In this document: piece after piece, positions 2,347 to 49,794 of the stretch
Layout of the letters: each line of letters starts with the position of its first letter
Numbering within the stretch: position 1 is the first letter of the stretch
DNA from: a virus
Strand: one strand, 5' to 3'
DNA length: 64,000 nt
IMG/VR virus record: IMGVR_UViG_3300015263_000944
Coordinates: 171,395-235,394 of that record
Translations under genes and position numbers: made by a program
Notes under the pieces: model-generated
The model's input: the letters and a program-made list of their open reading frames with translations, nothing else
Databases searched by the model: none
Told to the model about the DNA's origin: nothing

Positions 2347-3041
2347 CGTTTAGAGATTGGCTACAACTAGATGAAGCAAGAATGAAGGGGTTCAAGAGGC
2401 ACTTTCTTAAGATGCACCCCCATGTGCCAAAGTATGTCGCCCATCAGATGTACACAAATCGACTCGGGCCAGAGCTAGACCGATCCATCAGAACCTATGG
2501 AAGCGTTGCGCCAACAGTCCTTCAGATACCAGAGCCAGTTGACCTACAAGCAACCACTATCGATCATCGTCCCGCTGGCAGCCCTCGGCCTTCGCCAAGC
2601 GAACTTCTGAGAGACAGGGATTTCTTGAAAGACATTGTTTGGGAGAAACGCCCGAGAACAATAGAAGTCGGCCCGCTCGATTTCGATCAAGGCACCCTTG
2701 GCCTGTTCCTCCAATGGAGATTCGGATTTGCGCCCAAAAATCAACTGGTCAGAAACGACACGAACCGATTCGCTGTACAAAGAAAGAAACTGATCGACCA
2801 AATCGCCGGGGATAACGAGCCAATCATCATCGTCAAAGAAGGCAACAAATATCGCCTATTGGAAGGATATCACAGAACGATGATCTTCCTGCTCTGGCCC
2901 TATCAAGATGTGCCGGGCGCACCGCCAGATCAGATTGAAATCTTAGAAAAAGGTGGAGACCCCAACCTGCTCGACTTTGCCAAGTGGTTGAGAGTCCCCA
3001 TCAAAGCGTACATTGGAACTAAGTCTGGGCTTGCTGCATAA
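2343..3041 (+). CDS. ParB/Srx-like nuclease-domain protein with CTS-like N-terminus (MTFRDWLQLDE)
   Basis: Start ATG overlaps upstream stop (ATGA). KYRLLEGYHRT resembles the ParB N-terminal DGHHR motif. Confidence 0.45.
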   Translation: MTFRDWLQLDEARMKGFKRHFLKMHPHVPKYVAHQMYTNRLGPELDRSIRTYGSVAPTVLQIPEPVDLQATTIDHRPAGSPRPSPSELLRDRDFLKDIVWEKRPRTIEVGPLDFDQGTLGLFLQWRFGFAPKNQLVRNDTNRFAVQRKKLIDQIAGDNEPIIIVKEGNKYRLLEGYHRTMIFLLWPYQDVPGAPPDQIEILEKGGDPNLLDFAKWLRVPIKAYIGTKSGLAA

Positions 3042-3753
3042 GCTTCGGCACTTTGCCCATCGCCTCTTCACTGATCTGTTCGTATTCACTGGGATCGCCA
3101 CTGAAGATCTTGTAGTGATGCACAATGGAGTTTCCTGTTGCTTGCGGCTTGTGGCCTTTGAATTGGGCACGCAGCGTCATGATGAACGCTCCTCCCACCA
3201 GTGGGAGTTCTTCCGGCCATGGCCCAATATCATCCCAGCACTTACGGCTGATGAGCATACACCATTCCTGAATGAACTGTACCTTTTGTTTCTGGATGTA
3301 GTATTCATTCAGTTGTACGCCCACAATGCCAGCCCCTTTAGAGATCGAGATGTTGATCAAGATGTCCAGCCATGCTGGATTCAGGACGGCGGTGTCACAG
3401 TGGAGGAAGACGAAGTAGCTGGAACGGGGATCGGCCATTGCCACGCCTTGATTGCAGGCGGCTGACCAATACTTGTTCTCCTTGTTGCGGACAACCTTGA
3501 TTCCTTCAGATTCCAAGACACTCAAATAGTCCTTGGTCTCAGGATCATCAGATGCGTTGTCAACGACAATGACTTCGTAGTTGGCTAAATGACTACAGAC
3601 GTGAATCGACTGCAAGCAGATGTTGAGATATTCTGGCTTGTTGTGATGAACGACGATGATCGAGACTTGTTCGTCACGGCCATCCTCCAAATCGATTCGA
3701 AGATCAGGAACTCCTGATGGAGATTCAAGCGGGTTATGCGGTTGGTCTGTCAT
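3019..3753 (-). CDS. Glycosyltransferase family 2
   Basis: VSIIVVHHNKPEYL (GT-A N-terminal motif), VIVVDNASDD, HCD; about 240 aa, typical GT2. Confidence 0.7.
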   Translation of the reverse strand: MTDQPHNPLESPSGVPDLRIDLEDGRDEQVSIIVVHHNKPEYLNICLQSIHVCSHLANYEVIVVDNASDDPETKDYLSVLESEGIKVVRNKENKYWSAACNQGVAMADPRSSYFVFLHCDTAVLNPAWLDILINISISKGAGIVGVQLNEYYIQKQKVQFIQEWCMLISRKCWDDIGPWPEELPLVGGAFIMTLRAQFKGHKPQATGNSIVHHYKIFSGDPSEYEQISEEAMGKVPKLMQQAQT

Positions 3754-3814
3754 ACTATTCCCTCCTTGTGCATATTACAGTAAGGAGGATACATATTCTT
3801 AAAGAGGTAATCAC

Positions 3815-3979
3815 ATGGAAGACACACAACTCCAAGCACAGGGCCTATTCGATGCTTTCAGGCTCCTTGACAAAGAATTGGTAGACAAGGTTCTAGCAAT
3901 CGCCAAAACCCTGAAGATCGAAGAACTCGATGGTGGGATCACCAGAATTACGATTGAACTGGTGAATCAGAAGAAGTGA
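3815..3979 (+). CDS. Small hypothetical protein (54 aa)
   Basis: ATG preceded by AAGAGG RBS; below the ORF-track length cutoff; translated by hand as MEDTQLQAQGLFDAFRLLDKELVDK... Confidence 0.3.
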   Translation: MEDTQLQAQGLFDAFRLLDKELVDKVLAIAKTLKIEELDGGITRITIELVNQKK

Positions 3980-4229
3980 CACCTTCGACTTCAACATCTG
4001 TGACCACGCCATATTCAATCACACAATCCACATCCTGCACCTTCTCGGTTCGGGGAAGCTGGTTCGTGTAAAGGTATTGGCGGATCACATCTGGATCGAT
4101 GTGGGCCTTCTCGACACTCACGAAAACGAACTCGCCCTCAACCTGACGGGCGATCTTCATCAGCATTGCTACTTTCATGCGAGGCTCTCCTGCAAATCTG
4201 GGAACGGGCCTTCGAGCCAAACACGGCAC
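3948..4229 (-). CDS. Hypothetical protein (real start may be at MKVAMLMKIARQ)
   Basis: ORF track only; no recognisable motif. Confidence 0.3.
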   Translation of the reverse strand: MPCLARRPVPRFAGEPRMKVAMLMKIARQVEGEFVFVSVEKAHIDPDVIRQYLYTNQLPRTEKVQDVDCVIEYGVVTDVEVEGVTSSDSPVQS

Positions 4230-4528
4230 AAAGGAGTGTCACGTCTCAACGTGATGATTTCTTTTCCAGCGTTAACCAGATCCACATAGATCTCTCCGCT
4301 CTCAAATGATCCCGGCGCATTGGCGGCAACCAATCCCTTTTCCGTCAGTTCGGGAACAAGCTGGAAACACAGTCTGTAGCCGTTGGCTACCTCAACATGT
4401 ACTCCCGTGCTCACCCTCTTCGCATACCGGGAGGGAAACTGGCCCGTCATCACTTCGCTCGGCGGGAATGCTGCCGAGAGAACATTGTCCTGCGGGATTT
4501 GTCCCTTTGTTACTTTCACTAATGGCAT
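4175..4528 (-). CDS. dUTPase / dCTP-deaminase fold protein (short)
   Basis: FESGEIYVDLVNAGKEIITLRRDTPLCRV resembles the dUTPase GxIDxxYxGE..N and RIAQL motifs. Start chosen at MPLVKV. Overlaps ORF 4392-4829. Confidence 0.4.
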   Translation of the reverse strand: MPLVKVTKGQIPQDNVLSAAFPPSEVMTGQFPSRYAKRVSTGVHVEVANGYRLCFQLVPELTEKGLVAANAPGSFESGEIYVDLVNAGKEIITLRRDTPLCRVWLEGPFPDLQESLA

Positions 4529-4829
4529 TTCGATTCTCCTCTTGCTGTTGTTCTCTTCTGCGTTGCTCACGAACACGAGCAATCATCAAGTTGAAGTTTT
4601 TACGGAATGACTTCAATGCACTGGTCGGGTACTGTGCCGCCAGTTCGATCAAGCCATTCTCTGTGTATTCGTCAAACCCTTGAAGTCTGATCCAATCAGA
4701 GATGACCCCGAAGGTTAGTTGGCGGTTAGGGCCAACTCGGTGATCTTCACTCTTAAGTCTGTCTGGTACAAGAATCTTCGCTTGAATAGCGTTACCTTCA
4801 CGTCTTGCCATATTTTTCTCCTGTTTCAT
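4392..4829 (-). CDS. Hypothetical protein; 3' end overlaps the dUTPase-fold ORF
   Basis: ORF track; internal start MARREGNAIQAK plausible; basic Q/R-rich middle. Confidence 0.3.
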   Translation of the reverse strand: MKQEKNMARREGNAIQAKILVPDRLKSEDHRVGPNRQLTFGVISDWIRLQGFDEYTENGLIELAAQYPTSALKSFRKNFNLMIARVREQRRREQQQEENRNAISESNKGTNPAGQCSLGSIPAERSDDGPVSLPVCEEGEHGSTC

Positions 4830-5151
4830 ACAATTGGCTGTGTTCAGCCTTGGCTTCTTCTGCCTTCTGATAGATATCTTCAGACGCTTCGAAAAAGTTC
4901 TCAGGCAGATTATTGATGGCGTCGAGGTACTCGAAAATCTTGTCCGAGTAGGGAGTTTCTTTGTTATTCTGATACGCCTTCCGAGCGATGATGTCGATGC
5001 TCAGAATCTCCTCCTTCTGGACCCCATTGACCATCATGGACACCTTAGCGGGGGTCAAGAAGCGAACATCTTGGATTTCGATCTCGTGAGGCATAGAAGT
5101 GGCTACCAAAGGAGCTTGTGCCTCATACTTGAAGTGTTTTTGCTCTGACAT
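4798..5151 (-). CDS. Hypothetical protein
   Basis: ORF track; tidy tiling with neighbours. Confidence 0.4.
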   Translation of the reverse strand: MSEQKHFKYEAQAPLVATSMPHEIEIQDVRFLTPAKVSMMVNGVQKEEILSIDIIARKAYQNNKETPYSDKIFEYLDAINNLPENFFEASEDIYQKAEEAKAEHSQLYETGEKYGKT

Positions 5152-5172
5152 GACATAAATAGAGTAACGACT

Positions 5173-5600
5173 ATGGGCAAATTCAAAGAATTCCTACTCA
5201 CTGAAGAAATTGGCCTCGGCGATCTCGGCCAGCGAATTGACAGTCTCATGAACAGTCAAAAGTTCGGCAACCAGATCGGCGGTGCATTTGCATCGACTGA
5301 CGTAACTGGCTCCGAGATGGGACCGACCATGGGTTTTGCTGGTCACTCCCTGTGGCTGCCATCGACCGACTTGACCGTTCCATCTGTGGAACGAACAGGG
5401 CGCATCACCACTCTGCTGTTGAAGCGTAACCCGATCTATGTCAGGCTCTCCGATGGCACAGAAGCGAACTTTTCCTACGAGGAATATCGCCGCATCGAAG
5501 GCAGCCCTGCATTGGGAAAGACAATGACCCTCATCTTCCAGCGACATCCAGAGGATCAGACCTCTGGATACTCGAAGATCGACAAAGCCATTGTGCGTGA

Positions 5601-5604
<4 letters not shown>
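5173..5604 (+). CDS. Hypothetical protein with CTS-like N-terminus (MGKFKEFLLTEE)
   Basis: N-terminal motif family member; CATAAATA element 15 bp upstream. Confidence 0.5.
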
Positions 5605-7788
<2,184 letters not shown>

Positions 7789-7800
7789 CGATTTGTCTAT

Positions 7801-8385
7801 ATGCCGCCGCCAAAAACAGGCACAACCACCATTTCTTCAATCCTTTTTGAAGAATACGAGGTGGACTACTGGGACTTCAAAGATACTGTGCCTGTAAGGC
7901 TGGAGATTACTGACCCCAAAGGCTACGTCTGGCCCCGCCACATCATACACCTGCCAGAAGAACTTCAGGACTACTTTGTCTTTGCAACAATTCGCAACCC
8001 GTATCGACACACTCTGTCACAATACTGGAATCAATGCTTTGTCAAAAAGAAAAAAGTGTCGATGGCTGGTTTCCACAAATACCTATCTGCCCCGAGACTA
8101 CAGAGCTTTTACCACCTGTTACACAGGAACGAAGACTACAAACCACCAAAAGGTTGCGTTCATTTCGAAATCCACAAATACCTTGACACGGAGCGTCTTA
8201 CAGAGGGATTCAACGAACTACCATTTGTGCAAACGCCTGTGCGATTGCAGCACCTCAAGGCATCAATCAAAGACAATTTGTGTTACACGGAAGAGATGGC
8301 CCAACTCGTGTTAGAAAAGCGTCGATGCGACTTTGACTTCTTCGGATATGACACGAAGATACCGGAGGATCTATGTTCGTTGTGA
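7801..8385 (+). CDS. Sulfotransferase-family protein
   Basis: PKTGTTT (5'-PSB P-loop-like) and RNPYRHTLSQY (3'-PB) motifs. ORF track starts at 7768; Met at 7801 avoids overlap with divergent gene. Confidence 0.5.
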   Translation: MPPPKTGTTTISSILFEEYEVDYWDFKDTVPVRLEITDPKGYVWPRHIIHLPEELQDYFVFATIRNPYRHTLSQYWNQCFVKKKKVSMAGFHKYLSAPRLQSFYHLLHRNEDYKPPKGCVHFEIHKYLDTERLTEGFNELPFVQTPVRLQHLKASIKDNLCYTEEMAQLVLEKRRCDFDFFGYDTKIPEDLCSL

Positions 8386-9209
8386 CGCCCAGACTCAAGA
8401 TCGTAGCAACCATCCTCGCCAAGAACGAAGAGGACATCATCGCCCAAACGATTGAGCACCATCTCAAGCAGGGTGTCTGGAAGATCATCTTTACAGACAA
8501 CAATTCGACGGACGACACTCGCCGAATCGCCGAAAAATACCCCGAGGTGGTCGAGGTTATTGACGAGCCGGGGAACGACCATAATCAATCGCTGTGGGTC
8601 ACTAGAATGGCTCAGATCGCTTGTAAGCTAGATCCAGACTGGATCATCCACTTGGATGCTGATGAGCACTGGGGCGGCTTGATGGCCCTCTCAGAGATCT
8701 CTGCCGAAGTGGCAGGTTGCACCCGGATGTACCTACATCCGCCCATCGATTGGGAGTTCGACTTAGAACAGATGAGTCCCTATCTGGACTTCGACGACAT
8801 TCCCATTCCTCAAGAATGTAAAATTGCCCACCGACCCGATCCAAAAATTGTAATCAGCCATGGCAATCATGGTGTAGAAACTGGGCAATCCATAGAATTC
8901 ACCAAAAGGGTCTGGCGGCACCACTATCCCATCAGATCATACAAGCAGTGGGAACGCAAGTCTTTGGGCCACGAGGCACTTCTTAGAAGAAATGCCGTAT
9001 GTGAAAGATGGAAGATGTGGTATGATTCCCTCTCTTCAGGAGATCTTTCCGGCCAGTACGAGAGAATTATTAGAAGCTGGCGTGCTATGATAAAGAGCCC
9101 AAATTGCGAGGATTTCCTGCAATTGCTTGAGTTTTGGGCAACCCCTGATATGCAACAGTTCTTTAAGAAAAATGGCATGATGCCAAAGGTGAGGAAACAT
9201 GCGAAGTAA
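8373..9209 (+). CDS. Glycosyltransferase family 2-like
   Basis: IVATILAKNEEDII, DADEHW (DxD-like). Confidence 0.55.
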   Translation: MFVVTPRLKIVATILAKNEEDIIAQTIEHHLKQGVWKIIFTDNNSTDDTRRIAEKYPEVVEVIDEPGNDHNQSLWVTRMAQIACKLDPDWIIHLDADEHWGGLMALSEISAEVAGCTRMYLHPPIDWEFDLEQMSPYLDFDDIPIPQECKIAHRPDPKIVISHGNHGVETGQSIEFTKRVWRHHYPIRSYKQWERKSLGHEALLRRNAVCERWKMWYDSLSSGDLSGQYERIIRSWRAMIKSPNCEDFLQLLEFWATPDMQQFFKKNGMMPKVRKHAK

Positions 9210-9672
9210 GGTTGTGTTGGTTCGGGGCTGGGGTAGGGTTGCCGAACAGATCACACTAGGAGAATTCGAAAGAATCAACGCTGATTATGTCGTGTTGATC
9301 ACGGCACTGAGATACCCCTCAACCTTGCCAGAGGAATACTCTGGCTTCGAAGCCGATCCTACATCCATGTACACAGATGCCAAGAGCATTCTGCACTACT
9401 GGGCATTGCACGACCAACACTATATGGTCGCCGCCGAATATGCCAACATCGTTACCAGCCGATCAGGCAAAGAGATCAAGGCTGTTGAAGGCAACTCGCT
9501 GGAGATCGACTGGTGGTATGACACAGTGAGAAACTACCACCGCCACTTCGGCCAGACCGTCATCGATGCCCGTGTTTTGTATGATGAAGGCAAGTGCCTC
9601 ATTATTGATGGCATCAAGCACTCATTGGAACATGGGATCGAACTACTCCGACCCCAGCCATTTCTGGGATAA
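9199..9672 (+). CDS. Hypothetical protein
   Basis: ORF track; coupled to upstream GT. Confidence 0.4.
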   Translation: MRSKVVLVRGWGRVAEQITLGEFERINADYVVLITALRYPSTLPEEYSGFEADPTSMYTDAKSILHYWALHDQHYMVAAEYANIVTSRSGKEIKAVEGNSLEIDWWYDTVRNYHRHFGQTVIDARVLYDEGKCLIIDGIKHSLEHGIELLRPQPFLG

Positions 9673-10284
9673 CTGAATCAACCGCTGCGCCTGCTGGTGA
9701 TCGAAGACATCATTGCAGCACCCAGTCTTGCTTTCCAGATGAGCTTTGACTCGCTCAGTCTGCTCCCACTCCTCTTTGAGAATGCCGAGCATGATAGAGT
9801 CGTAGTATCTTCCAGACTTGAACACGGCACGGCGACGACGCCCTTCGACCTTCATGCCTAGATGGCCGATCTCAAGCTTCTGAGCGGCAGCGTGTGTCTC
9901 TAGCACTTCTGCTTGGACTCGCTGCATATTGAGCACCTCGAAACAGAAGTCGAGCCCGCAAGAGAAGGCAGGCTTAACGATCTCTTCCATCTTGCGGCTC
10001 TCTTTGAAGACGGAGCCACTGAGATTCAACGTCCGAGCAAACCAATCAATGTCGGTGAACAGAGCAATTCCAATGGCGTTGTTGTGCCCTGTGTTGCCCT
10101 CGCCTTCAGCCATCATCGCCAAGTTGTTGTGCCCGAGACTCTCGTACCACTTCAATTGATCTTCTGCGTTGATGATCGACGTTCCATGGGTGCCCCACCA
10201 GCTTTCGCTCTTCAAAGCCATCAAGGCGTGCAAGTCTCCCTTGTGCAACTTCCTTAGTGTAATTCCCTCTTTGTGCTTATACAT
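9643..10284 (-). CDS. GNAT-family N-acetyltransferase (RimL-like)
   Basis: QRVQAEVLETHAAAQKL and GMKVEGRRRRAVFKSGRYYDSIMLGILKEEW, typical GNAT motifs A/B. Confidence 0.65.
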   Translation of the reverse strand: MYKHKEGITLRKLHKGDLHALMALKSESWWGTHGTSIINAEDQLKWYESLGHNNLAMMAEGEGNTGHNNAIGIALFTDIDWFARTLNLSGSVFKESRKMEEIVKPAFSCGLDFCFEVLNMQRVQAEVLETHAAAQKLEIGHLGMKVEGRRRRAVFKSGRYYDSIMLGILKEEWEQTERVKAHLESKTGCCNDVFDHQQAQRLIQLSQKWLGSE

Positions 10285-10532
10285 CAGAATCCCTCCAATC
10301 TCCAGTTAGGTCGCAAATCGACAATCTCAAATTCTTGTGTGAAAGTAATGAGTCCTTTTTCGTACCAAGGCCAGAGAAGACTGCGTGCGTGTCTTGTCAG
10401 CCCTTTGACAATCTCCCCGGCCTCGAAAACTTGCTCAACATACAAGCCATTCGACAACTGCATCTCGAACGCCAAATCCTCATTGGAAATGTTGCGTGCA
10501 GTGAACGTGTTCAAAAGCCTTCGTTCTTCCAT
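10284..10532 (-). CDS. Small hypothetical protein, C-terminus ...NWRLEGF (paralog 1 of 3)
   Basis: Three tandem overlapping 73-82 aa ORFs all ending W-x-x-EGF. Confidence 0.45.
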   Translation of the reverse strand: MEERRLLNTFTARNISNEDLAFEMQLSNGLYVEQVFEAGEIVKGLTRHARSLLWPWYEKGLITFTQEFEIVDLRPNWRLEGF

Positions 10533-10747
10533 TTGACCGGCTCAGCCCTTTCTCCTTGCAAAAACGCATGTTCTAAGAACTCGGGAGTGAGCCAATAGTT
10601 CGTCCCATCTTGAAATGGCGACAGATCTCCGTGGTCAGAATAGAAAAGAACCGATTCTCCTGCATCCAACACAATCACTTCGCCATTCGGCCTGTGGATC
10701 GTAATTGGCTCAGACTCTCTGTTCTTTATAACATAAGTGTGGCTCAA
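10511..10747 (-). CDS. Small hypothetical protein, C-terminus ...KWKNEGF (paralog 2 of 3)
   Basis: See above; start overlaps upstream stop. Confidence 0.45.
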   Translation of the reverse strand: MSHTYVIKNRESEPITIHRPNGEVIVLDAGESVLFYSDHGDLSPFQDGTNYWLTPEFLEHAFLQGERAEPVKWKNEGF

Positions 10748-10965
10748 AATCCCTCGATGGCCCAGTTGTGGACTTCACTCTGGTAAACATCCTCGTCCTT
10801 AAACCAACCCCACTCAACGAAATCCCACGTCTCGTCTGTGGGATATTCATCAGAGTCTTCGTAGATCGCTTTTTGTCCGGGGCGAAGTAACTCTGTGCGA
10901 CCGGAAGTAAAGTCGGCAAGCAACGCAACGTCACACACATTTGTCAAACAACAGACCATCAACAT
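10744..10965 (-). CDS. Small hypothetical protein, C-terminus ...NWAIEGF (paralog 3 of 3)
   Basis: See above. Confidence 0.45.
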   Translation of the reverse strand: MLMVCCLTNVCDVALLADFTSGRTELLRPGQKAIYEDSDEYPTDETWDFVEWGWFKDEDVYQSEVHNWAIEGF

Positions 10966-11788
10966 ATTCCTTCAAGTTGTGCTTGGGCCTCCAGCCCAAC
11001 ATGGCCTTGGAATGGTGAATATCGGCCAACGTGTTGTCGGCCTCACCGGGTCGCTTTGGCAGATATTCGATTGGCCGTCCAAACATCTCTGCCACTTCGT
11101 TGATCGAATGATTCGTACCTGTCCCGAGATTAAAGATCTCGGCATCCCAGTCGCTCTCAGACATGGCGAGCAAACCATTCACGATGTCTTCGACATGGGT
11201 GAAGTCACGGCGTTGTTCTCCCGTCCCAGTGACGGTGAGTGATCGACCCTCTCTCGCTTGTCGCTCGAAGATTCCAACGACTGTAGCATAAGCCCCATCT
11301 TCAAGTTGGCGTGGGCCATAGACGTTGAAGAAACGAGCGATAGCAACTGGGACATTGTAGAGACGGTTGTAAAGTGTGCAATACTCTTCCGCCTTAAGCT
11401 TCGTGAAACTGTAAGGATTGGCGTACTGGTCATGGTAGACCGAACTTGAACCTGCGTAAATGACCCTTGACCCACAAAGCCGTGCCATCTCCAGAATCTT
11501 CATGGTGCCAGTGACGTTTGACTCATGTGTCACATCGGGCTTCTCGAAGCTGGGTTGAATTCTGGCCTCACCAGCCAGATGAAAGATGGCCTCATAGCCA
11601 TCCTCTGCATGATACTTTGGATGGATGGATTCTACAGATATCTCATGAAAGCGAGCCTGTTCATGAACTTGCTCCCGCTTGCCAGTCGTCAACGAATCCC
11701 AGACTACCACTTCATGGCCGTCCTTAATCAATCTGTCTGTCAGATGTGATCCAATGAAACCGGCTCCTCCTGTGACCAGATACCGCAT
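10931..11788 (-). CDS. NAD-dependent sugar epimerase/dehydratase (SDR; GalE/HldD-like)
   Basis: MRYLVTGGAGFIGSHL Rossmann motif, YSFTKLKAE (YxxxK), GEQRRDFTHVEDI. Start at MRYLV, not the upstream Met of the ORF track. Confidence 0.8.
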   Translation of the reverse strand: MRYLVTGGAGFIGSHLTDRLIKDGHEVVVWDSLTTGKREQVHEQARFHEISVESIHPKYHAEDGYEAIFHLAGEARIQPSFEKPDVTHESNVTGTMKILEMARLCGSRVIYAGSSSVYHDQYANPYSFTKLKAEEYCTLYNRLYNVPVAIARFFNVYGPRQLEDGAYATVVGIFERQAREGRSLTVTGTGEQRRDFTHVEDIVNGLLAMSESDWDAEIFNLGTGTNHSINEVAEMFGRPIEYLPKRPGEADNTLADIHHSKAMLGWRPKHNLKEYVDGLLFDKCV

Positions 11789-11790
11789 GA

Positions 11791-12105
11791 CTACCCCGGA
11801 TTGTTTTGATTGAAAGTCTGAAACGACCATGTGGCTCGATCAGACGGGTTGACGTTCTCCATTGGGGTGCCGCCGACTGTGATCGTGAATTGATCACTAG
11901 AGAATCGACCCATCATTGGATCGATGGCTGCGATCTCTGAAATTGATGGAGTTTTGTCCTCGGTGAGATAGGGTTGTATAAGACGCTCTGCTTCTTCGTC
12001 TTTCAGTTCCAAACAACCTCGCCACCCATTTTCATACGCTTGAACCAATAAACTTCTGAGATCGTCCAAATCAATTTGTATCATTCGTGTGGCTCCCAAT
12101 AACAT
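11791..12105 (-). CDS. Hypothetical protein
   Basis: ORF track; overlapping start/stop with neighbours. Confidence 0.35.
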   Translation of the reverse strand: MLLGATRMIQIDLDDLRSLLVQAYENGWRGCLELKDEEAERLIQPYLTEDKTPSISEIAAIDPMMGRFSSDQFTITVGGTPMENVNPSDRATWSFQTFNQNNPG

Positions 12106-13199
12106 ATAAAATAGTGGTCGCCGTCCTTTTCTCCCAGCAAGACGCCATCAGACTTGCGCCGCTGGCCGTCCGCAAAATCGGGCCGCAGAACACGATAATG
12201 ATCAAACAAAGGCTTCCCGCCAATCTCTGGGCAGTTGTCCAAATGATCAACAACCTTGTTCATTGCTTCGGATGGATTCAGTTGGTAGATGGGATATGTT
12301 TTCGGCTTGTACTCAACCCGATTAAACAAGTTCCCTTGTGAACTTTCTTCGACATAGGCCATCCCTTCCGACTCTTCGATATAGGCCATCGCCTTCGTCA
12401 TAGAATAAGGACGAACATCCACGGTGAACTTCACGCCGATCTGCTTGCCGAGAATGATCGATGCGGCTGTCAAAGAAATACGATTGAAACCGCAACACTG
12501 CTCCAACAAATGCTTCTGTTGGATCTCCTCGATGTATCGTTCCACTTCGCTTGCCATGTCTGGCAGATTGAATTTCTTCAGATGAATGAGTCGATTTCTG
12601 GCTTCGTCGATATCACGCTGGTAAATGTTTTGATGTCGATAGAAGGTTGAGAAGTCCGCTGGGTGAGCGATCCAAAACGACTCTCCCTTCTTGTGCAGAA
12701 CAGCGAGCCCCACTTCTTGTGAATCCTTGCGTTCTCGCATAAGCCGTCGCAAGCCACTGTCCTTAATGAAACGCACATTCATCAAGTGACTGTATGGCGA
12801 ACCAATCCCGCCTGCAATCGTCTTGAACATCTCATGTTTGGCAAGTCCACGCTGAACAGATGCCAAGACCTCAGAAGAGAGACTAACAGATTTTCCGTAT
12901 GAGACCAACTTGAGCACATCACAAGCATAACGGCTGAAGCTTCCTTCTTCACTCCCTACAAGCTGGCCGTCGAAAATCTCAAACAGATCAGGGTGTGGGT
13001 TCTCCAGATCGATGCACTCGACAAACAGAGCGAGATTTACACCGAGTTCCTGTCCCAAGGCATCTGTGAGATCCTTGTCATAGTACATCGGAACGTCTGT
13101 GAGAATACCCGAAAGGGGCGGCGTTTCTACAACGTCGCCCCTTTCAAATACTCGTTCCAAAATTTGGAGTTGTTGAGATTGAACATCCGTGTCAATCAT
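12081..13199 (-). CDS. Hypothetical protein (372 aa)
   Basis: ORF track; no motif recognised. Confidence 0.5.
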   Translation of the reverse strand: MIDTDVQSQQLQILERVFERGDVVETPPLSGILTDVPMYYDKDLTDALGQELGVNLALFVECIDLENPHPDLFEIFDGQLVGSEEGSFSRYACDVLKLVSYGKSVSLSSEVLASVQRGLAKHEMFKTIAGGIGSPYSHLMNVRFIKDSGLRRLMRERKDSQEVGLAVLHKKGESFWIAHPADFSTFYRHQNIYQRDIDEARNRLIHLKKFNLPDMASEVERYIEEIQQKHLLEQCCGFNRISLTAASIILGKQIGVKFTVDVRPYSMTKAMAYIEESEGMAYVEESSQGNLFNRVEYKPKTYPIYQLNPSEAMNKVVDHLDNCPEIGGKPLFDHYRVLRPDFADGQRRKSDGVLLGEKDGDHYFICYWEPHE

Positions 13200-13728
13200 C
13201 CTTCGTCCTTTTTACTTCCACACGGGCCGTCACATTATGGCCCTCGAAACCCGGTGGCTTCTCCACCGTTGCGATATCTGAAAGCATCGCAATGACCTTG
13301 TTCAAGGCTTCGAAGCCCATGTCCTTATGGGCCTTCTCTCTGGCCTTGAATTTGACGACGAACTTCACACGGTGTCCCTTCTCTATGAACTTCCGGGCTT
13401 GATTCGCCTTCGTCTCCAGATCGTGATCGCTGATCACATATCTGAAGGACAACTCTTTGTCCTTGTGGGACGCCGGTTGTTTCTTCTTCTTGCTCCTCTC
13501 GAACATGAACTTGCCGTAGTCCATGATCTGGCAGACTGGGGGCCGAGCTTGCGGAGCAACCTCGACGAGATCGAGACCAGCCTGTTTCGCTCGATAGAGA
13601 GCATCAGGCGTGGGCATGACCCCTAGATTCTGACCGTCCTGAATGACCCTGACTTCTTTGATGCGGATTCGCTCATTACAACGAACGAAATCCTTCTTCT
13701 TTTCTGCCTTCTCGAATTTCTTTGGCAT
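13192..13728 (-). CDS. infC: Translation initiation factor IF-3
   Basis: N-domain CNERIRIKEVRVIQDGQNLGV...LDLVEVAPQARPPVCQIMDYGKFMFE and C-domain FRYVISDHDLETKANQARKFIEKGHRVKFVVKFKAREKAH align along their length with bacterial IF-3. Confidence 0.85.
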   Translation of the reverse strand: MPKKFEKAEKKKDFVRCNERIRIKEVRVIQDGQNLGVMPTPDALYRAKQAGLDLVEVAPQARPPVCQIMDYGKFMFERSKKKKQPASHKDKELSFRYVISDHDLETKANQARKFIEKGHRVKFVVKFKAREKAHKDMGFEALNKVIAMLSDIATVEKPPGFEGHNVTARVEVKRTKDD

Positions 13729-13741
13729 GTTTTGAGTCTCT

Positions 13742-15379
13742 CTAAACCTTCTTGGCTAGAGCAGTTGTCATCCTTTTAAGGCCCTCGGAAACATCTTTCC
13801 GTCCGACCTCTACATTTATCACAAAAAGCTTCTTGGAGTCAAGGGCTTCTTTAAGAACCTCATGCAACTGGGTTTCTGTAGAAACCTCTCGGCCTTCCCC
13901 TCCACCAATCAGCTTTGTGACATCATGGTATTTCCAACGGGGAATATCGTTGAATTCACCGTCCAGCAAGAATCTCTCAGTCGTGTAACCGTCGTTGTTT
14001 AAGACAATCACGATGGGATTCAATTTGCGATTGACGATGGTGCCCAGTTCGGTCATGGACATCTGGAAAGCACCGTCTCCAACGATCACGATAGGTCGCA
14101 CGTCTGGCATAGCCGCCTGCACGCCCAAAGCTCCCGGAATGGCCGAACCCATGCTCGTATAGAAAGCGGGGCTCAGGAAGTGGTTCCGGTGGTGTACTGT
14201 AAGATTACCAGCACCAAACAGACTGTCGCCGATGTCGGAGACAATCGCCATGTTCTTGTCGAGAATTGAATCAATGGCCTCAAACAGACGTTCTGTAGTT
14301 ATCTTGGCTTCTGGTTTCGGCTCGAAAACCGGCTTCTTCTGTTTCACAGGCGGAAGTTCTGGAAGAGGCTTCTTGGTGAAGTCCATCTTAAACAAAGAAG
14401 CACAGAAATCCTTGAACTGGATACCGGAGTAGTTGTGGTTTCTGACCTGCAACCCTTCAACGGTCGAAGAAATCACCTGACGCTTCTTAAACTTCGCTGG
14501 TTTGAAGCACAAAGTCATGTCGGTAAGCATTACACCGAACATCAGAAGGCAGTCAGAATCTTCCACCAGCTTGCGTGTCATCTCATGGCTGCTATTGCCA
14601 GAGTAGATGCCAGCGAACAAACGATGTCGTTCATTGATGACCGACTTACTGAGCAATGTCGTTGCCACAGGAATGTCGGCACGTTCGGCGAAACGAATGA
14701 GTTGCTCGCCCAAATCGTAGCGGGCCAATTCCACACCGGCCAGAATGACAGGTTGCTTGGCTCCTTCGATCCACTCGGCCACTTCTTTGAGGGCTTCGCC
14801 GAGATTCTCTGTATCGGTAGCAGGAGCGACTGGCGTGCCCTGCTTGTACACATCATAGCTGATTGACTTCTTGGCGATGTCACGAGGCAACTCGATGTAA
14901 ATCGGTCGCTTGTAGTGGTGCATTGCCTCGAAGGCCCTGTCAATCTCGTATCCGGCTGTGGCTGGATTGTCGAGGACGACGCTGGCGCAAGTGATGTTGT
15001 CGAACATCTTCTTCTGTGAATTGAAGCTGCCCACCATGTGATGCAGCAAGTAGCCCTCGTTTCGCTCATTCAGACCGGGGGCACCGGAAATCACAACAAG
15101 AGGAGATCTTTCGGCATAAGCACATTGAACGGCGTTGATGACCTTGGCCGCTCCGACGTTGTATGTCACTACTACACAACCAACACCATTGACACGAGCA
15201 TATGCGTCGGCAGCAAAGCCGGAATGATTTTCATCTGTGTTGTTGATGACTTCGATGTTCTCATAGTCCCAGAGTTCCTTATAGAAATCCAGAACGTAGT
15301 CGCCGGGTACGCCCATTACATGTCGAACCCCAGCGTTTTCCAATCGTTCAATGAGAAAACGGGAAACTAACATAGCCAC
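13742..15379 (-). CDS. TPP-dependent 2-keto-acid decarboxylase (PDC/IPDC family)
   Basis: N-terminal GVPGDYVLDFYKEL, YLLHHMVGSFN (like LLHHTLGNGDF of PDC), TPP motif GDGAFQMSMTELGT...VIVLNNDGYT. Confidence 0.8.
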   Translation of the reverse strand: MAMLVSRFLIERLENAGVRHVMGVPGDYVLDFYKELWDYENIEVINNTDENHSGFAADAYARVNGVGCVVVTYNVGAAKVINAVQCAYAERSPLVVISGAPGLNERNEGYLLHHMVGSFNSQKKMFDNITCASVVLDNPATAGYEIDRAFEAMHHYKRPIYIELPRDIAKKSISYDVYKQGTPVAPATDTENLGEALKEVAEWIEGAKQPVILAGVELARYDLGEQLIRFAERADIPVATTLLSKSVINERHRLFAGIYSGNSSHEMTRKLVEDSDCLLMFGVMLTDMTLCFKPAKFKKRQVISSTVEGLQVRNHNYSGIQFKDFCASLFKMDFTKKPLPELPPVKQKKPVFEPKPEAKITTERLFEAIDSILDKNMAIVSDIGDSLFGAGNLTVHHRNHFLSPAFYTSMGSAIPGALGVQAAMPDVRPIVIVGDGAFQMSMTELGTIVNRKLNPIVIVLNNDGYTTERFLLDGEFNDIPRWKYHDVTKLIGGGEGREVSTETQLHEVLKEALDSKKLFVINVEVGRKDVSEGLKRMTTALAKKV

Positions 15380-15388
15380 ACCTCTTCC

Positions 15389-16450
15389 TTATATTTCGAC
15401 CGTTGGAGAATCCTCGATCTTAATGAGGAAACCCTCCCCACCAATCGGGAACCTTCGCACCCATTCCACTCCTTCTCCCAGAATACATCCAAAGTAATAT
15501 GGAGTCAATGATTCATCTGTGAAACTGGGGATGAGCGAAATGTCAACCAGACTGGCACTCCCCTGCTCATTATAAGAAACAGAAGATTCTGATGGAATAC
15601 CAGTTTGATTTAAGACAACAGAACCATCGTTGTGTACGAGGCCAGTAAAGGTGCTGCCAGAGTACAAATGGGTCTCACCTGCCCACGGTGTATCCGGGAG
15701 CAAGTATTTGTCTGCTATTTGATCATAGGAAAGACGCACAGAACTTTCTGTGTGAGTTGTGCCTGTGTAAAAGAAACCATCGGTATGCGTGTGGACTTCG
15801 CCAATCCAGTTCCCTCCGGGGAGGTAATATACCACATCGATCATCTTGATTAACTTGAACTCGAACCAATAGCAACCGGGAAGACAAGTATCTTCTGGTT
15901 GCCACTCATAAACCAAGTTCGCACTGACCAACACGTCTTTCGTAACGGTGCCGTCAACTTGTTGCTGATCTTCGAAGACTAATTCGGCTTCGGCGGGAGC
16001 ATTCAACATGCGGAAAATCCGCATCTTGGTCCCCTTCTTCCAAGAGGAAGCAGTTGTGCCATGGTAGCCTCGCTGGACTCGCACCAGACTATTTCCTTCA
16101 TCAAATCCCAGCACCAACATTCTTTCGGGCAAACGCACTCGGTCCATGACAATGATGTCACCGACCATAATCTGCTCGAACCCCACGTTGTCGGCCAATG
16201 GGAAATAGGTGTCGGTCTCTGTGATCTTGCACTTGAGTTTTGCCAAGGCCCACATGTTGGCCTCAACTACTAATCCCTGCACATCCAGCGGACCTTCACA
16301 GTCTTCCACTGAGACTTTGAATGGAGGCTTGGTGTCGTGTCGTCTGATGACGAAATCTGGGCACACGTTCGAAGGACATCCGAACTTGTCTGGGCACACG
16401 TTTTGTGAGCCGCACCCGCTACCTGATCGTAAACTGAATTGGACTGCCAT
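15389..16450 (-). CDS. Hypothetical protein (about 350 aa), Cys-rich N-terminus
   Basis: ORF track (15389-16477); start uncertain (MAVQFSLRSGSGCGSQNVCPD). Confidence 0.5.
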   Translation of the reverse strand: MAVQFSLRSGSGCGSQNVCPDKFGCPSNVCPDFVIRRHDTKPPFKVSVEDCEGPLDVQGLVVEANMWALAKLKCKITETDTYFPLADNVGFEQIMVGDIIVMDRVRLPERMLVLGFDEGNSLVRVQRGYHGTTASSWKKGTKMRIFRMLNAPAEAELVFEDQQQVDGTVTKDVLVSANLVYEWQPEDTCLPGCYWFEFKLIKMIDVVYYLPGGNWIGEVHTHTDGFFYTGTTHTESSVRLSYDQIADKYLLPDTPWAGETHLYSGSTFTGLVHNDGSVVLNQTGIPSESSVSYNEQGSASLVDISLIPSFTDESLTPYYFGCILGEGVEWVRRFPIGGEGFLIKIEDSPTVEI

Positions 16451-16473
16451 ACTCGTATATAGAGTTAGCAGGA

Positions 16474-17025
16474 TCAAATGTCGTAAACGCCCAGTTGTCT
16501 CAGACGCTCAGACCAATCTGCGATCCACGCCACGCTGCCTTGGAATTTTTCCAAACGAATACCGGCCATGCGTGCCATCTCGAAAGTCTTGTCTCTCCAA
16601 GACCCATTTTGCAGAGAGGAATTGCGGTCGCCTTGAAAATCGAAGTAGACGATTCGGCCAATTCCTTCATCGATGATTTCCAACATGCACTTCGGACAGG
16701 GCAATGCTGTGACATAGAGCGTGGCATCGGTGAGATCTTCGCCCTTCGAATGTTTGATCGCATTTGACTCGGCGTGCTTGACGAGATCATAACGATTGAT
16801 GCCTTCCTCATCTGGGGCGGGGCGATGCCAACTGAAAGAAGTGTCGTCAATCAGTCGAGGCGGTCCATTGTAACCTGAACCCAGCGGCTCGTTGTTCTGA
16901 CTGATGATCTGAGCCCCAACTTGAGTGTTGGGGTCTTTGCTGAAGCCAGCGTGAATCCAAGCAAGACCCATGTATTTCAGATCTCGCTCTGGAACTTCCC
17001 GAGGTGGAGTGCGGTGTTGGTTCAT
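16474..17025 (-). CDS. dCMP deaminase (CDA-fold zinc deaminase)
   Basis: HAESNAI ... LYVTALPCPKCMLEI zinc-binding HAE/PCxxC motifs. Confidence 0.75.
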   Translation of the reverse strand: MNQHRTPPREVPERDLKYMGLAWIHAGFSKDPNTQVGAQIISQNNEPLGSGYNGPPRLIDDTSFSWHRPAPDEEGINRYDLVKHAESNAIKHSKGEDLTDATLYVTALPCPKCMLEIIDEGIGRIVYFDFQGDRNSSLQNGSWRDKTFEMARMAGIRLEKFQGSVAWIADWSERLRQLGVYDI

Positions 17026-17043
17026 TGAGAATCCCTTCTCGTG

Positions 17044-23042: not shown

Positions 23043-23181
23043 TTACACCTCTTGGTCGGACTTGGGATCGTGCCTCGATTGAGCCCTTGTGGAGCGAACC
23101 AAACCAGACCCTTATCCGCAATCTCCTTCAAGATCTTCTTTCTCTGCTCTTTCGTTCTTCGTTTTTCTAACCAATGATTCT

Positions 23182-35139: not shown

Positions 35140-35152
35140 CTTCTAACTTGAG

Positions 35153-49714: not shown

Positions 49715-49794
49715 GATGCTCCCCTTGTGTAAGAAAAGAGGGCGATAGCGGTAGAGTAACGATCAACCACCACTACCGCCCCCAACGTCCGTCA

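Follow-up and report, generated by a model that had tools for sequence, protein, structure and literature searches.

A core 2-oxoacid decarboxylase gene and a neighbouring variable set of sugar genes in an uncultured megaphage lineage

Genes at the locus and phage lineage

The genes located at positions 3019-15379 of the window (the whole 64,000-nucleotide stretch analysed), together with their neighbours, are listed in Table 1. When the window ORFs were searched with Pfam profiles, the eight ORFs proposed in the initial annotation (three GT2 glycosyltransferases, a sulfotransferase, a GNAT acetyltransferase, an SDR, DnaJ and a TPP enzyme) were all confirmed, in coordinates as well as in family. 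A complete IF-3 gene, absent from that list, lies between the TPP and sugar genes. The TylF- and FkbM-type methyltransferases reported elsewhere in the window both exist; the tentative reading of the glycan as "methylated" rests on these genes, which are 20-35 kb distant.

Table 1. Positions of the genes discussed in the text (window coordinates)
Feature	Position	Strand	Basis
GT2_a, soluble 244-aa family-2 glycosyltransferase	3019..3753	-	Pfam Glycos_transf_2, E 1.3e-17
DnaJ, full length	5957..6973	-	Pfam DnaJ (J domain), DnaJ_CXXCXGXG Zn finger, DnaJ_C
GT2_b, 272-aa family-2 glycosyltransferase	6970..7788	-	Pfam Glycos_transf_2, 29.4 bits (gathering score 23.3)
Sulfotransfer_2-like protein, ~200 aa, putative PAPS-dependent sulfotransferase	7768/7801..8385	+	Pfam Sulfotransfer_2, 21.7 bits (gathering score 22)
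GT2_4, 278-aa glycosyltransferase	8373..9209	+	Pfam Glyco_tranf_2_4, E 8.9e-13
157-aa protein	9199..9672	+	Co-oriented with GT2_4, overlaps its end
GNAT acetyltransferase	9643..10284	-	Pfam Acetyltransf_3, 29.1 bits (gathering score 25.4)
Extended SDR, NDP-sugar epimerase or UXS-like	10931..11830	-	Pfam Epimerase, E 3.6e-53
372-aa protein following IF3	12081..13199	-	No Pfam, NCBIfam or PHROG family match
Translation initiation factor IF-3 (N + C domains)	13192..13728	-	Pfam IF3_N, IF3_C; NCBIfam infC, 161 bits (cutoff 60)
TPP-dependent 2-oxoacid decarboxylase, PDC/IPDC/KdcA family	13742..15379	-	Pfam TPP_enzyme_N, M, C, each E < 1e-23
353-aa all-beta protein	15389..16450	-	Always next to the TPP gene, on its upstream side
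dCMP/cytidine deaminase-family protein	16474..17025	-	Pfam dCMP_cyt_deam_1, E 1.4e-16
TylF-type methyltransferase	33750..34310		
FkbM-type methyltransferase	47610..48473		

For most of the window ORFs, the Pfam search gave no match. S21, PDF, IF3 and tmRNA were found, in agreement with the huge-phage repertoire. Gene content and gene order are shared with an IMG/VR contig and with metagenome contigs of 273-693 kb, and LR756511 (595 kb) was the only relative among GenBank phages. On these grounds, it was concluded that the window belongs to an uncultured megaphage lineage. Ten related loci, including L004, L005 and L086-L093, were considered, seven of which (L005, L086-L091) were compared with the window pairwise and gene by gene. 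The ten lineage members have the order dCMP deaminase, 353-aa protein, TPP enzyme, IF3, sugar genes, DnaJ, and this identical order argues that the clustering is not due to chance. A repertoire of translation and chaperone genes is known from huge phages (PMC7162821). DnaJ and IF3 would belong to this repertoire and not to glycan synthesis.

The TPP-dependent decarboxylase

The likely start of the TPP gene is the ATG at 15373, which gives a protein of 543 aa. The top PDB matches were KivD/KdcA (E 1e-82 to 1e-85), followed by PPDC/IPDC among the best structures. Against NCBIfam, the scores for TIGR03394 and TIGR03393 were 356 and 315 bits, far under the equivalog cutoffs of 554.5 and 946; the enzyme falls below every such cutoff and is clearly diverged. 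The GDG-X24-NN motif, E50 and E468 were invariant in the 120 homologues compared, while D27 and H113/H114 were kept in at least 119 of them, and all these catalytic and cofactor residues are also present in the LR756511 copy. The TPP motif, on which the initial annotation had staked its reading, was thereby confirmed, and the enzyme is predicted to be catalytically intact. Six residues were assigned to the pocket from a pairwise alignment with KdcA, and not from a structure of the enzyme itself: Met288, Ile383, Leu387, Thr467, Met537 and Leu541. With this mapping, the pocket is predicted to be hydrophobic, unlike that of pyruvate decarboxylase.

The gene is part of the lineage core and is the most conserved of the region: its product is 67-78% identical to those of the relatives, and no other gene ranked above it in any of the pairwise comparisons. 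Homologues form more than 120 sequence clusters at 65-100% identity and occupy one genomic position in phages whose GC content spans 33-50%. Among named cellular sequences, the closest relatives are archaeal (41-47%). Furthermore, Psychromonas ossibalaenae carries a 75%-identical copy in chromosomal context. This sequence nests within the phage subclade of the window (76% to P0001-3, at most 71% to the rest) and its gene adjoins a sub-threshold IS200-like ORF, which points to a transfer from phage to bacterium. That a PDC-family enzyme is unusual in a phage held true among deposited genomes, since the only credible GenBank phage match was LR756511. The other "phage" matches in GenBank turned out to be bacterial contigs filed as phage.

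The fixed block around the decarboxylase

A gap of 13 nt separates the TPP gene from the downstream IF3 gene, which is kept in all relatives, including LR756511. The 372-aa protein that follows diverges fast (23-34% identity; 23% for the LR756511 homologue), and a DegT aminotransferase stands in its place in L088 and L090. On the other side, the 353-aa protein has 694 homologues and an AlphaFold2 model of pLDDT 73.5 that is all beta. No Pfam domain was detected, and a structure search of the PDB returned nothing significant. In BFVD, the weak matches were tail-fibre and baseplate proteins (E ~1e-5, TM ~0.2). Rather than an enzyme partner, the protein is probably a structural one of the tail-fibre or baseplate type.

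The deaminase forms the right end of the block common to the window and LR756511, a genome of the Al-Shayeb et al. 2020 data set. The two share an AAA ATPase and DnaE as well as the stretch from the deaminase through the 353-aa protein, TPP enzyme and IF3 to the 372-aa protein, at 23-58% identity. LR756511 differs by its unsplit DnaE and by an aldehyde dehydrogenase gene 5.4 kb downstream, and no glycosyltransferase, GNAT or SDR gene was found within 15 kb downstream of its TPP block.

The sugar cassette

GNAT and GT2_b were found in all ten loci and are lineage core genes. In the seven relatives compared, their products are 45-61% and 47-71% identical to those of the window, respectively. GT2_b, in which a DDD motif (LCDDDEL) was seen, is always directly upstream of DnaJ, whose start abuts the GT2_b stop and which constitutes the conserved left border of the cassette. 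DnaJ is 40-52% identical in six of the seven relatives, the contig of L086 ending before its position, and was called as a 338-aa protein in L004. GT2_a was present in every relative reaching its position (L089, L090 and L091; 58-75% identity) and was called in L092 and L093 as well. For the GNAT protein, NCBIfam gave PseH as the best match, although a weak one, and the compact packing of DegT, GNAT, GT2 and DnaJ in L090 argues that it acts on an amino sugar. As Acetyltransf_3 also includes ribosomal-protein acetyltransferases, GNAT could instead belong with the translation genes; it is probably a sugar N-acetyltransferase.

The other members come and go among the relatives, i.e. the SDR, the DegT aminotransferase, GT2_4 with its 157-aa partner, and the sulfotransferase, so that the cassette is variable. 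The SDR, found in the window, in three of the seven relatives and in L092, contains the motifs GGAGFIG and YSFTK; its best PDB matches were UDP-glucose 4-epimerase (4zrm) and UDP-GlcA decarboxylase. The inverted module has the order sulfotransferase, GT2_4, 157-aa protein. GT2_4 occurs in five of the seven relatives (L005, L086, L087, L089 and L091; 55-58% identity) and is missing in L088 and L090. Its 157-aa partner, for which Pfam, NCBIfam and PHROG gave no match, was found in L005, L086, L087 and L089.

The sulfotransferase of the window falls 0.3 bit short of the Pfam threshold. The assignment was rescued at the family level: seven of eight members match PF03567 (best E 2.4e-9), and the motifs PKTGTT[TS] and R[ND]P[YF][RK]xxxS[QR]Y, resembling the 5'-PSB and 3'-PB, are kept in every member covering them. 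The P-loop and 3'PB motifs, a second point on which the initial annotation could have failed, were thus found in the family alignment. PHROG 3347, "galactose-3-O-sulfotransferase", was matched with E 1.5e-4, and the AlphaFold2 model (pLDDT 52) was too poor for a fold check. The gene always lies directly upstream of GT2_4, with which its stop overlaps by 13 nt. Seven clusters of homologues were found and the GenBank phage collection gave no match. The sulfotransferase is therefore a rare accessory gene, and sulfation a rare add-on.

Two proposed units at one locus

We favour, with moderate confidence, an explanation in which these genes form two separate units, a core decarboxylase and a neighbouring variable set of sugar genes, including the substrate class proposed below for the former. 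The sugar unit would lie between IF3 and DnaJ, with GNAT and GT2_b as its constant core and GT2_a about 3 kb further on. Its exchangeable accessories would be the NDP-sugar epimerase or, alternatively, the DegT aminotransferase, and the inverted module, made of GT2_4 with or without the 157-aa protein and with or without the sulfotransferase. In the window, an NDP-sugar would be epimerised and an amino sugar N-acetylated, presumably in this order. Up to three sugars would then be transferred, a virion protein or the host envelope being the candidate acceptor, and the GT2_4 product is the putative target of sulfation with host PAPS.

The glycosyltransferases, GNAT and sulfotransferase might instead modify phage DNA, producing hypermodified, glycosylated bases. 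Glucosylation of DNA is a frequent activity of phage glycosyltransferases and DNA glycans of diverse kinds have been described (works cited in PMC12619734), and the window encodes dCMP deaminase, ThyA and DHFR. However, ThyA passes the thymidylate-synthase equivalog cutoff and hence gives no sign of a hydroxymethylase, and neither an hm-pyrimidine kinase nor base-modifying genes were seen. Sugar-nucleotide tailoring by SDR, DegT and GNAT proteins, with swapping accessories, is typical of surface-glycan loci, and the heptose genes found elsewhere, HldE-like and GT9-like, suggest sugars of the envelope type. We consider DNA modification unlikely.

In the two-unit explanation, the TPP enzyme would most likely convert a hydrophobic 2-oxoacid of the infected cell into an aldehyde and CO2. 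The predicted pocket suggests a branched-chain, aromatic or thioether 2-oxoacid, and the reaction would not be a step of glycan synthesis. If this is true, the TPP enzyme is an auxiliary metabolic enzyme. The initial annotation had placed it within a single island devoted to a sulfated, acetylated and methylated polysaccharide. In such an island, the enzyme would provide either an aldehyde, an acyl group or an acyloin, or a C2 unit of phosphono or sulfo type, for attachment to the polysaccharide. Certain branched-sugar and phosphonate pathways do employ TPP enzymes. The gene lies within 2-4 kb of the sugar genes in each of the ten close relatives, and in the same direction as SDR and GNAT; it is co-directional with IF3 and the 372-aa gene too, with tiny gaps, so that it may be co-transcribed with the sugar genes. 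Nevertheless, LR756511 keeps the block from deaminase to 372-aa protein with no sugar gene nearby, and the sugar genes vary among close relatives while the TPP gene is constant. Both observations indicate that the TPP gene is independent of the cassette, an argument resting mainly on this one distant genome. Besides the hydrophobic pocket, the PDC/IPDC/KdcA-type architecture and catalytic residues speak against the single island. The best 25 NCBIfam matches included no phosphono- or sulfopyruvate decarboxylase model, and the Pfam-scanned window ORFs no PEP mutase or sulfolactate-pathway gene. The sugar-nucleotide and glycan-modifying genes do form a real set with conserved synteny, but inclusion of the decarboxylase in one functional unit appears quite improbable.

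Similarly doubtful is the possibility that GNAT, and perhaps GT2_b, act on translation or chaperone proteins (RimJ/RimL-like acetylation, glycosylation of host factors) in a host takeover with IF3, S21, PDF and DnaJ. In favour of it, RimJ and RimL belong to the Acetyltransf_3 family, IF3 and DnaJ lie among these genes, and the end of GT2_b is in every case joined to the start of DnaJ; against it, the packing of DegT, GNAT and GT2 in L088 and L090 and the SDR upstream in others follow a classical amino-sugar logic, and the GNAT matches PseH best, though weakly. Finally, the Psychromonas copy could mean that the decarboxylase gene was taken from a host recently and is a mere passenger, with nothing phage-specific, which is very improbable in view of its many clusters at one position across phages of differing GC content, its conservation and near-invariant catalytic residues, the nesting of that copy in a phage subclade beside an IS200-like ORF, and the archaeal affinity of its nearest named cellular relatives.

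Comparison with known systems

The phage enzyme belongs to the three-domain ThDP fold family of Lactococcus lactis KdcA/KivD (2vbf, 6vgs, 9msa) and aligns with them over the full length. Common to both sides are the GDG...NN motif, the cofactor Glu and the catalytic residues (Asp, His-His and Glu). Met538 of KdcA is also Met in the phage enzyme, and the pocket is non-PDC-like in both. The phage enzyme differs in having Met for Ser286, Leu for Phe381, Thr for Val461 and Leu for Phe542, and in being megaphage-encoded within a fixed, non-metabolic neighbourhood.

IPDC (Enterobacter cloacae, 1ovm) and PPDC (Azospirillum, 2nxw) correspond to the best NCBIfam models and match end to end, and homologues of the phage enzyme are labelled "indolepyruvate decarboxylase" by their sources. 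Gln383 of IPDC, which we take to contact the indole ring, is Ile in the phage enzyme, and the window holds no IAA-pathway partner. The pyruvate decarboxylases of Zymomonas and yeast belong to the same family, with common catalytic residues, and score lower than KdcA, PPDC and IPDC. In pairwise alignments, Tyr290, Trp392 and Ile472 of ZmPDC are Met, Leu and Thr; the PDC pocket signature is missing, and the enzyme is probably not a pyruvate decarboxylase.

The comparison with phosphonopyruvate and sulfopyruvate decarboxylases (Ppd, ComDE), suggested initially, showed that the enzyme is not of that type. ThDP-dependent decarboxylation of 2-oxoacids and the PYR and PP domains are common to all. 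Ppd and ComDE are devoid of a middle domain or split in two subunits, and are encoded near PEP mutase or coenzyme-M genes, whereas the phage enzyme has a middle domain and its gene neighbours encode a structural-like protein and IF3.

As for the sugar cassette, loci for glycosylation of phage virions or host surfaces likewise bring small soluble GT2s and sugar-tailoring genes together on the phage, with accessory content varying between relatives. One example is mycobacteriophages, in which GT2s encoded by the phage glycosylate capsid and tail (Freeman et al. 2023, as cited in PMC12619734); the glycosyltransferases of serotype-converting phages are a further example of phage host-surface glycosylation. 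Compared with these known loci, the present one is distinguished by the alternative between SDR and DegT, by GNAT and by the Sulfotransfer_2 protein.

Genes of the region 3019-15379

ORFs were listed in six frames together with a greedy gene set, and families were assigned by Pfam. The initial annotation had read this region as a single glycan-modification island that included a sulfotransferase and a PDC-family TPP decarboxylase. Each ORF that it named was recovered at its coordinates, and the TylF and FkbM methyltransferases that it had placed elsewhere are both present in the window. In addition, a complete gene for IF-3, absent from its list, follows the TPP gene downstream at a distance of 13 nt. 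A scan for sigma-70 promoters and terminators over positions 2500-17500 gave sites no more numerous than in shuffled sequence, and so defined no operon borders.

Coordinates of the features discussed in the text
Feature	Position	Strand	Assignment
GT2_a (glycosyltransferase)	3019-3753	-	Glycos_transf_2, E 1.3e-17
DnaJ, complete	5957-about 6973	-	Pfam: J domain, CXXCXGXG, C-terminal domain
GT2_b (glycosyltransferase)	6970-7788	-	Glycos_transf_2, 29.4 bits (gathering score 23.3)
Sulfotransferase-like	7768-8385	+	Sulfotransfer_2, 21.7 bits (gathering score 22)
GT2_4 (glycosyltransferase)	8373-9209	+	Glyco_tranf_2_4, E 8.9e-13
GNAT	9643-10284	-	Acetyltransf_3, 29.1 bits (gathering score 25.4)
SDR	10931-11830	-	Epimerase, E 3.6e-53
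372aa protein	12081-13199	-	fast-evolving; position taken by a DegT/DnrJ/EryC1 aminotransferase in L088 (8154-9275) and L090 (12171-13280)
IF-3, complete	13192-13728	-	Pfam IF3_N and IF3_C; NCBIfam infC, 161 bits (cutoff 60)
TPP enzyme	13742-15379	-	TPP_enzyme_N, M, C
dCMP-deaminase family	16474-17025	-	NCBIfam, see text
Peptide deformylase	20672-21187	-	
S21	21527-21850	-	
DnaE, polymerase core	29388-32270	-	
TylF methyltransferase	33750-34310		
tmRNA, complete	35150-35532	-	ARAGORN; Rfam RF00023
DnaE, PHP domain	41024-42433	-	
SpoVR	45042-46643	-	
GT9 (heptosyltransferase-like)	46643-47638	-	
FkbM methyltransferase	47610-48473		
DUF444/YeaH	48470-49714	-	
PrkA	49795-51879	-	
HldE-like, bifunctional	53168-54535	-	NF008454, 285 bits, below cutoff
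ThyA and DHFR	55673-57272		
TnsA-like, 231 aa	60724-61419	+	
GlpX class II FBPase	63058-63945	-	

Phage context of the window

The entire window is contained, with identical sequence, in a JGI metagenome contig (3300022562, Ga0247387_10000633), and megablast of the whole region against GenBank phages gave no nucleotide match. Clear similarity at the protein level was limited to one phage record, LR756511, a distant, uncultured phage of 595 kb (TPP enzyme 53% and DnaE core 42% identical). Most ORFs of the window have no Pfam match, and its gene content comprises PhoH, a split DnaE, ClpP, PrkA/DUF444/SpoVR, ThyA, DHFR, peptide deformylase (PDF), S21, IF-3 and a tmRNA. S21, IF3 and PDF belong to the known gene repertoire of huge phages (PMC7162821). 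Taken together, the similarity to LR756511, the Pfam-poor ORFs and this gene content point to the window being part of a huge phage. Related contigs reached via the TPP protein measure 68 kb (an IMG/VR UViG), 273, 288, 410, 686 and 693 kb; ERZ26692762 ctg84252, Ga0642625_00006 and ERZ24894575 ctg22650l are among those of 273-693 kb.

Several other features of the window were recorded. The tmRNA gene encodes the tag peptide VETSTPLRMAA and scores 88.5 bits with the Rfam model, against a gathering score of 47. S21, peptide deformylase and IF-3 are all kept in related megaphage contigs, and the S21 gene is overlapped by an ORF of the plus strand. The two DnaE parts lie about 9 kb apart and are separated by genes that include an AAA ATPase, the TylF methyltransferase and the tmRNA; a single 1179-aa ORF of LR756511 matches both. 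PrkA, DUF444 and SpoVR form a triad (45042-51879, minus strand), in which the GT9-like and FkbM genes are inserted between DUF444 and SpoVR. In NCBIfam, the dCMP-deaminase-family protein matched best to the C-terminal part of the 'anti-phage dCTP deaminase' model, at E 1.6e-15 and with a score well under the cutoff; the protein is probably a common dCMP deaminase that acts with the phage ThyA and DHFR. The TnsA-like protein, which combines an endonuclease N-terminal domain with a zinc-finger match, is a possible homing nuclease or nuclease of a mobile element.

Family, active site and predicted substrates of the TPP enzyme

All three domains of the TPP enzyme exceeded their Pfam gathering scores (PYR/N 92.1, middle/M 85.1 and PP/C 96.3 bits). 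Active-site residues were taken from pairwise alignments with proteins of solved structure and then verified in a multiple alignment that comprised 120 homologues and LR756511, the references being the family motif GDG-X(24-27)-NN and the catalytic sets of ZmPDC (D27/H113/H114/E473) and KdcA (D26/H112/H113/E462). The ThDP/Mg2+ motif (GDGAFQ...NN, with a 24-residue spacer) is invariant, together with Glu50, in the 120 homologues and LR756511, and this alignment confirmed the TPP motif as GDG-X24-NN. Similarly, the catalytic residues D27, H113, H114 and E468 align to those of KdcA/KivD, and at each of these positions no more than one of the 120 homologues deviates.

The best solved structures were Lactococcus KivD and KdcA (E 1e-82 to 1e-85), followed by Azospirillum PPDC, Enterobacter IPDC and pyruvate decarboxylases. 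Among the NCBIfam models, TIGR03394 (indolepyruvate/phenylpyruvate decarboxylase) ranked first with 356.4 bits against an equivalog cutoff of 554.5, and TIGR03393 (indolepyruvate decarboxylase) second with 315.3 bits against 946; acetolactate synthase models scored about 190 bits or lower. These sub-cutoff scores place the protein within the family, without making it the equivalog of any enzyme so far characterised. The protein, of 543 aa, is predicted to be a ThDP-dependent 2-oxoacid decarboxylase of the PDC/IPDC/KdcA type.

The KdcA pocket residues Ser286, Phe381, Val461, Met538 and Phe542 are replaced in the phage enzyme by Met288, Leu387, Thr467, Met537 and Leu541, and the position of Gln383 in IPDC is occupied by Ile383. 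At three of these positions, the alignment places Tyr290, Trp392 and Ile472 of ZmPDC. Because of the residues found at these positions, the pocket would be hydrophobic and not PDC-like, which suggests that the preferred substrates are 2-oxoacids of the aliphatic, aromatic or thioether kind. A 2-oxoglutarate decarboxylase, which together with an aldehyde dehydrogenase (ALDH) would provide a TCA bypass, is unlikely since the pocket positions are all hydrophobic, and a PDC-like specificity for pyruvate was rejected on the pocket residues.

Phosphonopyruvate and sulfopyruvate decarboxylases, with which a comparison had been proposed, either have no middle domain or consist of split subunits, and are linked to PEP mutase or coenzyme-M genes. 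This identity was rejected: the phage enzyme possesses the middle domain, its best models are IPDC/PPDC, the genes on either side encode a tail-fibre-like protein and IF3, and PEP mutase was not found among the Pfam-scanned ORFs of the window.

Gene order in related megaphages

The window was compared with seven loci reached via the TPP protein (L005, L086-L091), two reached via the sulfotransferase (L092, L093) and LR756511. One gene order is common to 10/10 lineage members: S21, PDF, about ten small ORFs, the dCMP-deaminase family, a 353-aa protein, the TPP enzyme and IF3, and then a variable segment, GT2_b, DnaJ, about six small ORFs, GT2_a and PhoH. In the variable segment, the GNAT is never missing (45-61% identity). 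The 372aa protein is found in most relatives, and in L088 and L090 its position is taken by a DegT/DnrJ/EryC1 aminotransferase, with no detected sequence similarity between the two. The SDR is carried only by the window, L005, L086, L089 and L092. Between GNAT and GT2_b lies a module on the opposite strand, which contains GT2_4 in most relatives and a 157-aa protein in some. The sulfotransferase, restricted to the window, L005, L092 and L093 (2/8 among the loci not chosen through it), is directly upstream of GT2_4 wherever it is present, and overlaps it by 13 nt in the window. This pattern of presence and absence describes a constant core (GNAT, GT2_b, GT2_a) with exchangeable accessories.

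The block shared by LR756511 extends from AAA ATPase and DnaE through the deaminase, the 353-aa protein, the TPP enzyme and IF3 to a 372aa homologue; GT, GNAT and SDR were not found in the 15 kb beyond it. Since LR756511 lacks the sugar genes in these 15 kb, and since the TPP gene stays constant among loci that differ in SDR, GT2_4, the 157-aa protein, sulfotransferase and DegT, this gene does not appear to be co-functional with the sugar genes. From gene order, it can be assigned to a separate and more deeply conserved block, and the decarboxylase is best read as an independent lineage-core enzyme, outside the glycan chemistry. Thus, the initial annotation was correct in its observation and half right in its interpretation: a phage sugar-modification set is present, in the form of a variable cassette amid translation and chaperone genes and not of a tight island, and the decarboxylase has to be removed from it.

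Occurrence of the TPP enzyme and its possible origin

A search of 5.8 billion proteins returned more than 120 TPP clusters at 65-100% identity; P0124 occurred on at least 23 contigs. All contexts sampled across the neighbour-joining tree (clusters P0001, P0010, P0027, P0037, P0047, P0092 and P0109, and locus L005) show one and the same megaphage neighbourhood, with a local GC from 33% to 50%. In each pairwise comparison, the TPP enzyme was the most conserved protein of the region (67-78%), above the 353-aa protein (61-77%), IF3 (52-72%) and the sugar genes (35-75%). Such conservation above structural, translation and sugar neighbours, maintained from 33% to 50% GC, would imply that selection strongly favours one particular chemical step in the course of infection.

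In a library of representatives at 50% identity, the phage clade corresponds to one representative at 63%, and the next ones are at 49%, 47%, 43% and lower. The named members of these next clusters are archaeal (Nitrososphaeraceae 47%, Methanoregula 41%) and annotated as 'TPP-dependent 2-oxoacid decarboxylase'. A contig scan of genomes with the TPP protein gave only Firmicutes genes of the acetolactate-synthase type, about 25% identical and matched via the generic DGAFQMSM, which are uninformative on close cellular relatives.

One true bacterial copy was found in Psychromonas ossibalaenae (KB906974.1, 1511-3133), 75% identical and surrounded by ordinary chromosomal genes. It is 76% identical to the subclade of the window (P0001-P0003) and at most 71% to all other phage sequences, and it nests inside this subclade in a neighbour-joining tree built without bootstrap support and with LR756511, not a cellular sequence, as sole outgroup. 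Its GC is that of its host, and the ORF that precedes it gave an IS200-like match below threshold. The simplest reading is a candidate phage-to-bacterium transfer, and this copy is a possible clue to the phage host.

Neighbours of the TPP gene and possible pathway

The 353-aa protein encoded upstream of the TPP gene has 694 homologues, none with a Pfam domain. Its AF2 model, obtained from 46 sequences (pLDDT 73.5), is all-beta; Foldseek gave no match below E 1e-3 against the PDB, and against BFVD a weak, domain-sized likeness to tail-fibre/baseplate proteins (E about 1e-5, TM about 0.2). On this model it is tentatively considered a probable structural protein. A role as metabolic partner of the decarboxylase was rejected, given the all-beta fold, a likeness limited to tail-fibre/baseplate proteins and the lack of a PDB match. 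With this protein upstream and IF-3 downstream, the immediate neighbourhood offers no metabolic clue.

In LR756511, a full-length aldehyde dehydrogenase (22040-23545; Aldedh E 1e-132) is located 5.4 kb downstream of the TPP gene and could act next on the aldehyde that the decarboxylase would release. By comparison with the PDB it is closest to the generic class 1/2/9 enzymes, so the identity of the aldehyde is not revealed. In such a scheme, 2-oxoacids derived from host amino acids would be converted into aldehydes by the phage decarboxylase, the aldehydes would be oxidised to acids by the phage aldehyde dehydrogenase in relatives such as LR756511, and the decarboxylase would have been handed on to at least one bacterium, Psychromonas. 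We propose, as a doubtful reading when taken as a whole, that the decarboxylase might be a lineage-defining takeover enzyme of megaphages of about 0.6-0.7 Mb, which would run an Ehrlich-type shunt and would have been passed to at least one bacterium, with some members of the lineage as, in addition, the first demonstrated phage producers of a sulfated glycan.

Sulfotransferase and other sugar genes

The sulfotransferase falls 0.3 bit short of its Pfam gathering score, and PHROGs places it in 'galactose-3-O-sulfotransferase' (E 1.5e-4). Only seven homologue clusters were found in a large protein database, four of which carry a precomputed PF03567; when the family members were scanned singly, 7/8 matched Sulfotransfer_2 (PF03567; best E 2.4e-9). 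The motifs sought were a 5'-phosphosulfate-binding PKxGxT[TS] near the N-terminus and a 3'-phosphate-binding RxPxxRxxSxY/F. The former is present as PKTGTTT (residues 15-21) and is kept as PKTGTT[TS] in each member covering the region, one of them with KTCTT; the latter has a counterpart in RNPYRHTLSQY (residues 75-85), kept as R[ND]P[YF][RK]xxxS[QR]Y in each covering member. Furthermore, a histidine is conserved in the family (KHIxHLP). The call made initially, which the absence of these motifs would have overturned, therefore stands. An AF2 model from seven sequences was too poor for a fold search (pLDDT 52), a profile search against PDB sequences gave spurious matches only (a designed Kelch repeat protein, response regulators), and tblastn against GenBank phages gave no match. 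The gene set of this phage probably includes sulfation of the GT2_4 product.

All three GT2 proteins exceed the Pfam gathering scores. The acidic DxD-type motif reads DDD in GT2_b and DAD in GT2_4, and GT2_a has the single-Asp HCDT there. The SDR contains GGAGFIG (Rossmann GxxGxxG) and YSFTK (YxxxK), scores below every NCBIfam equivalog cutoff (GalE, 121 against 262), and its PDB matches are tied between UDP-glucose 4-epimerase and UDP-glucuronate decarboxylase. It has 'SSS' at the position where 4,6-dehydratases have 'TDE', which speaks against such an activity. For the GNAT, the best named NCBIfam match was PseH, a weak one. In L090, DegT, GNAT, GT2_b and DnaJ are compactly arranged, as is usual where an N-acetylated amino sugar is made and then transferred.

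The window contains additional, scattered sugar genes, namely the HldE-like and GT9-like genes and the FkbM and TylF methyltransferases. The HldE-like protein (heptose-7-P kinase/heptose-1-P adenylyltransferase), GT9 and GlpX suggest a partial ADP-heptose route, located away from the region 3019-15379. ThyA exceeds the thymidylate-synthase cutoff, and no hydroxymethyl-pyrimidine route, which would suggest DNA glycosylation, was seen in the window.

Comparison with known phage systems

The sugar cassette, in which epimerase and aminotransferase are alternatives and GT2_4 and sulfotransferase are optional, represents a natural experiment in how glycans diversify; should its acceptor be the virion, it is relevant to immune evasion and receptor biology of phages. 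Translation genes and scattered metabolic genes are a known part of huge-phage genomes. The substrate of the decarboxylase, once identified, would offer a tangible way into the rewiring of host amino-acid/2-oxoacid metabolism by megaphages. Our literature searches returned nothing relevant on a phage-encoded keto-acid or indolepyruvate decarboxylase, the marine megaphage, huge-phage (PMC7162821) and moraphage papers do not mention a TPP decarboxylase, and a phage-encoded Ehrlich-type shunt was not found as a class of auxiliary metabolism in the papers searched. Within a well-known enzyme family, the TPP enzymes of these phages form a phage-specific clade under strong constraint, without description in the literature searched. 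Both elements are of known kinds, the decarboxylase being a phage auxiliary metabolic gene and the sugar set a phage glycosylation cassette, and the decarboxylase is the more interesting of the two.
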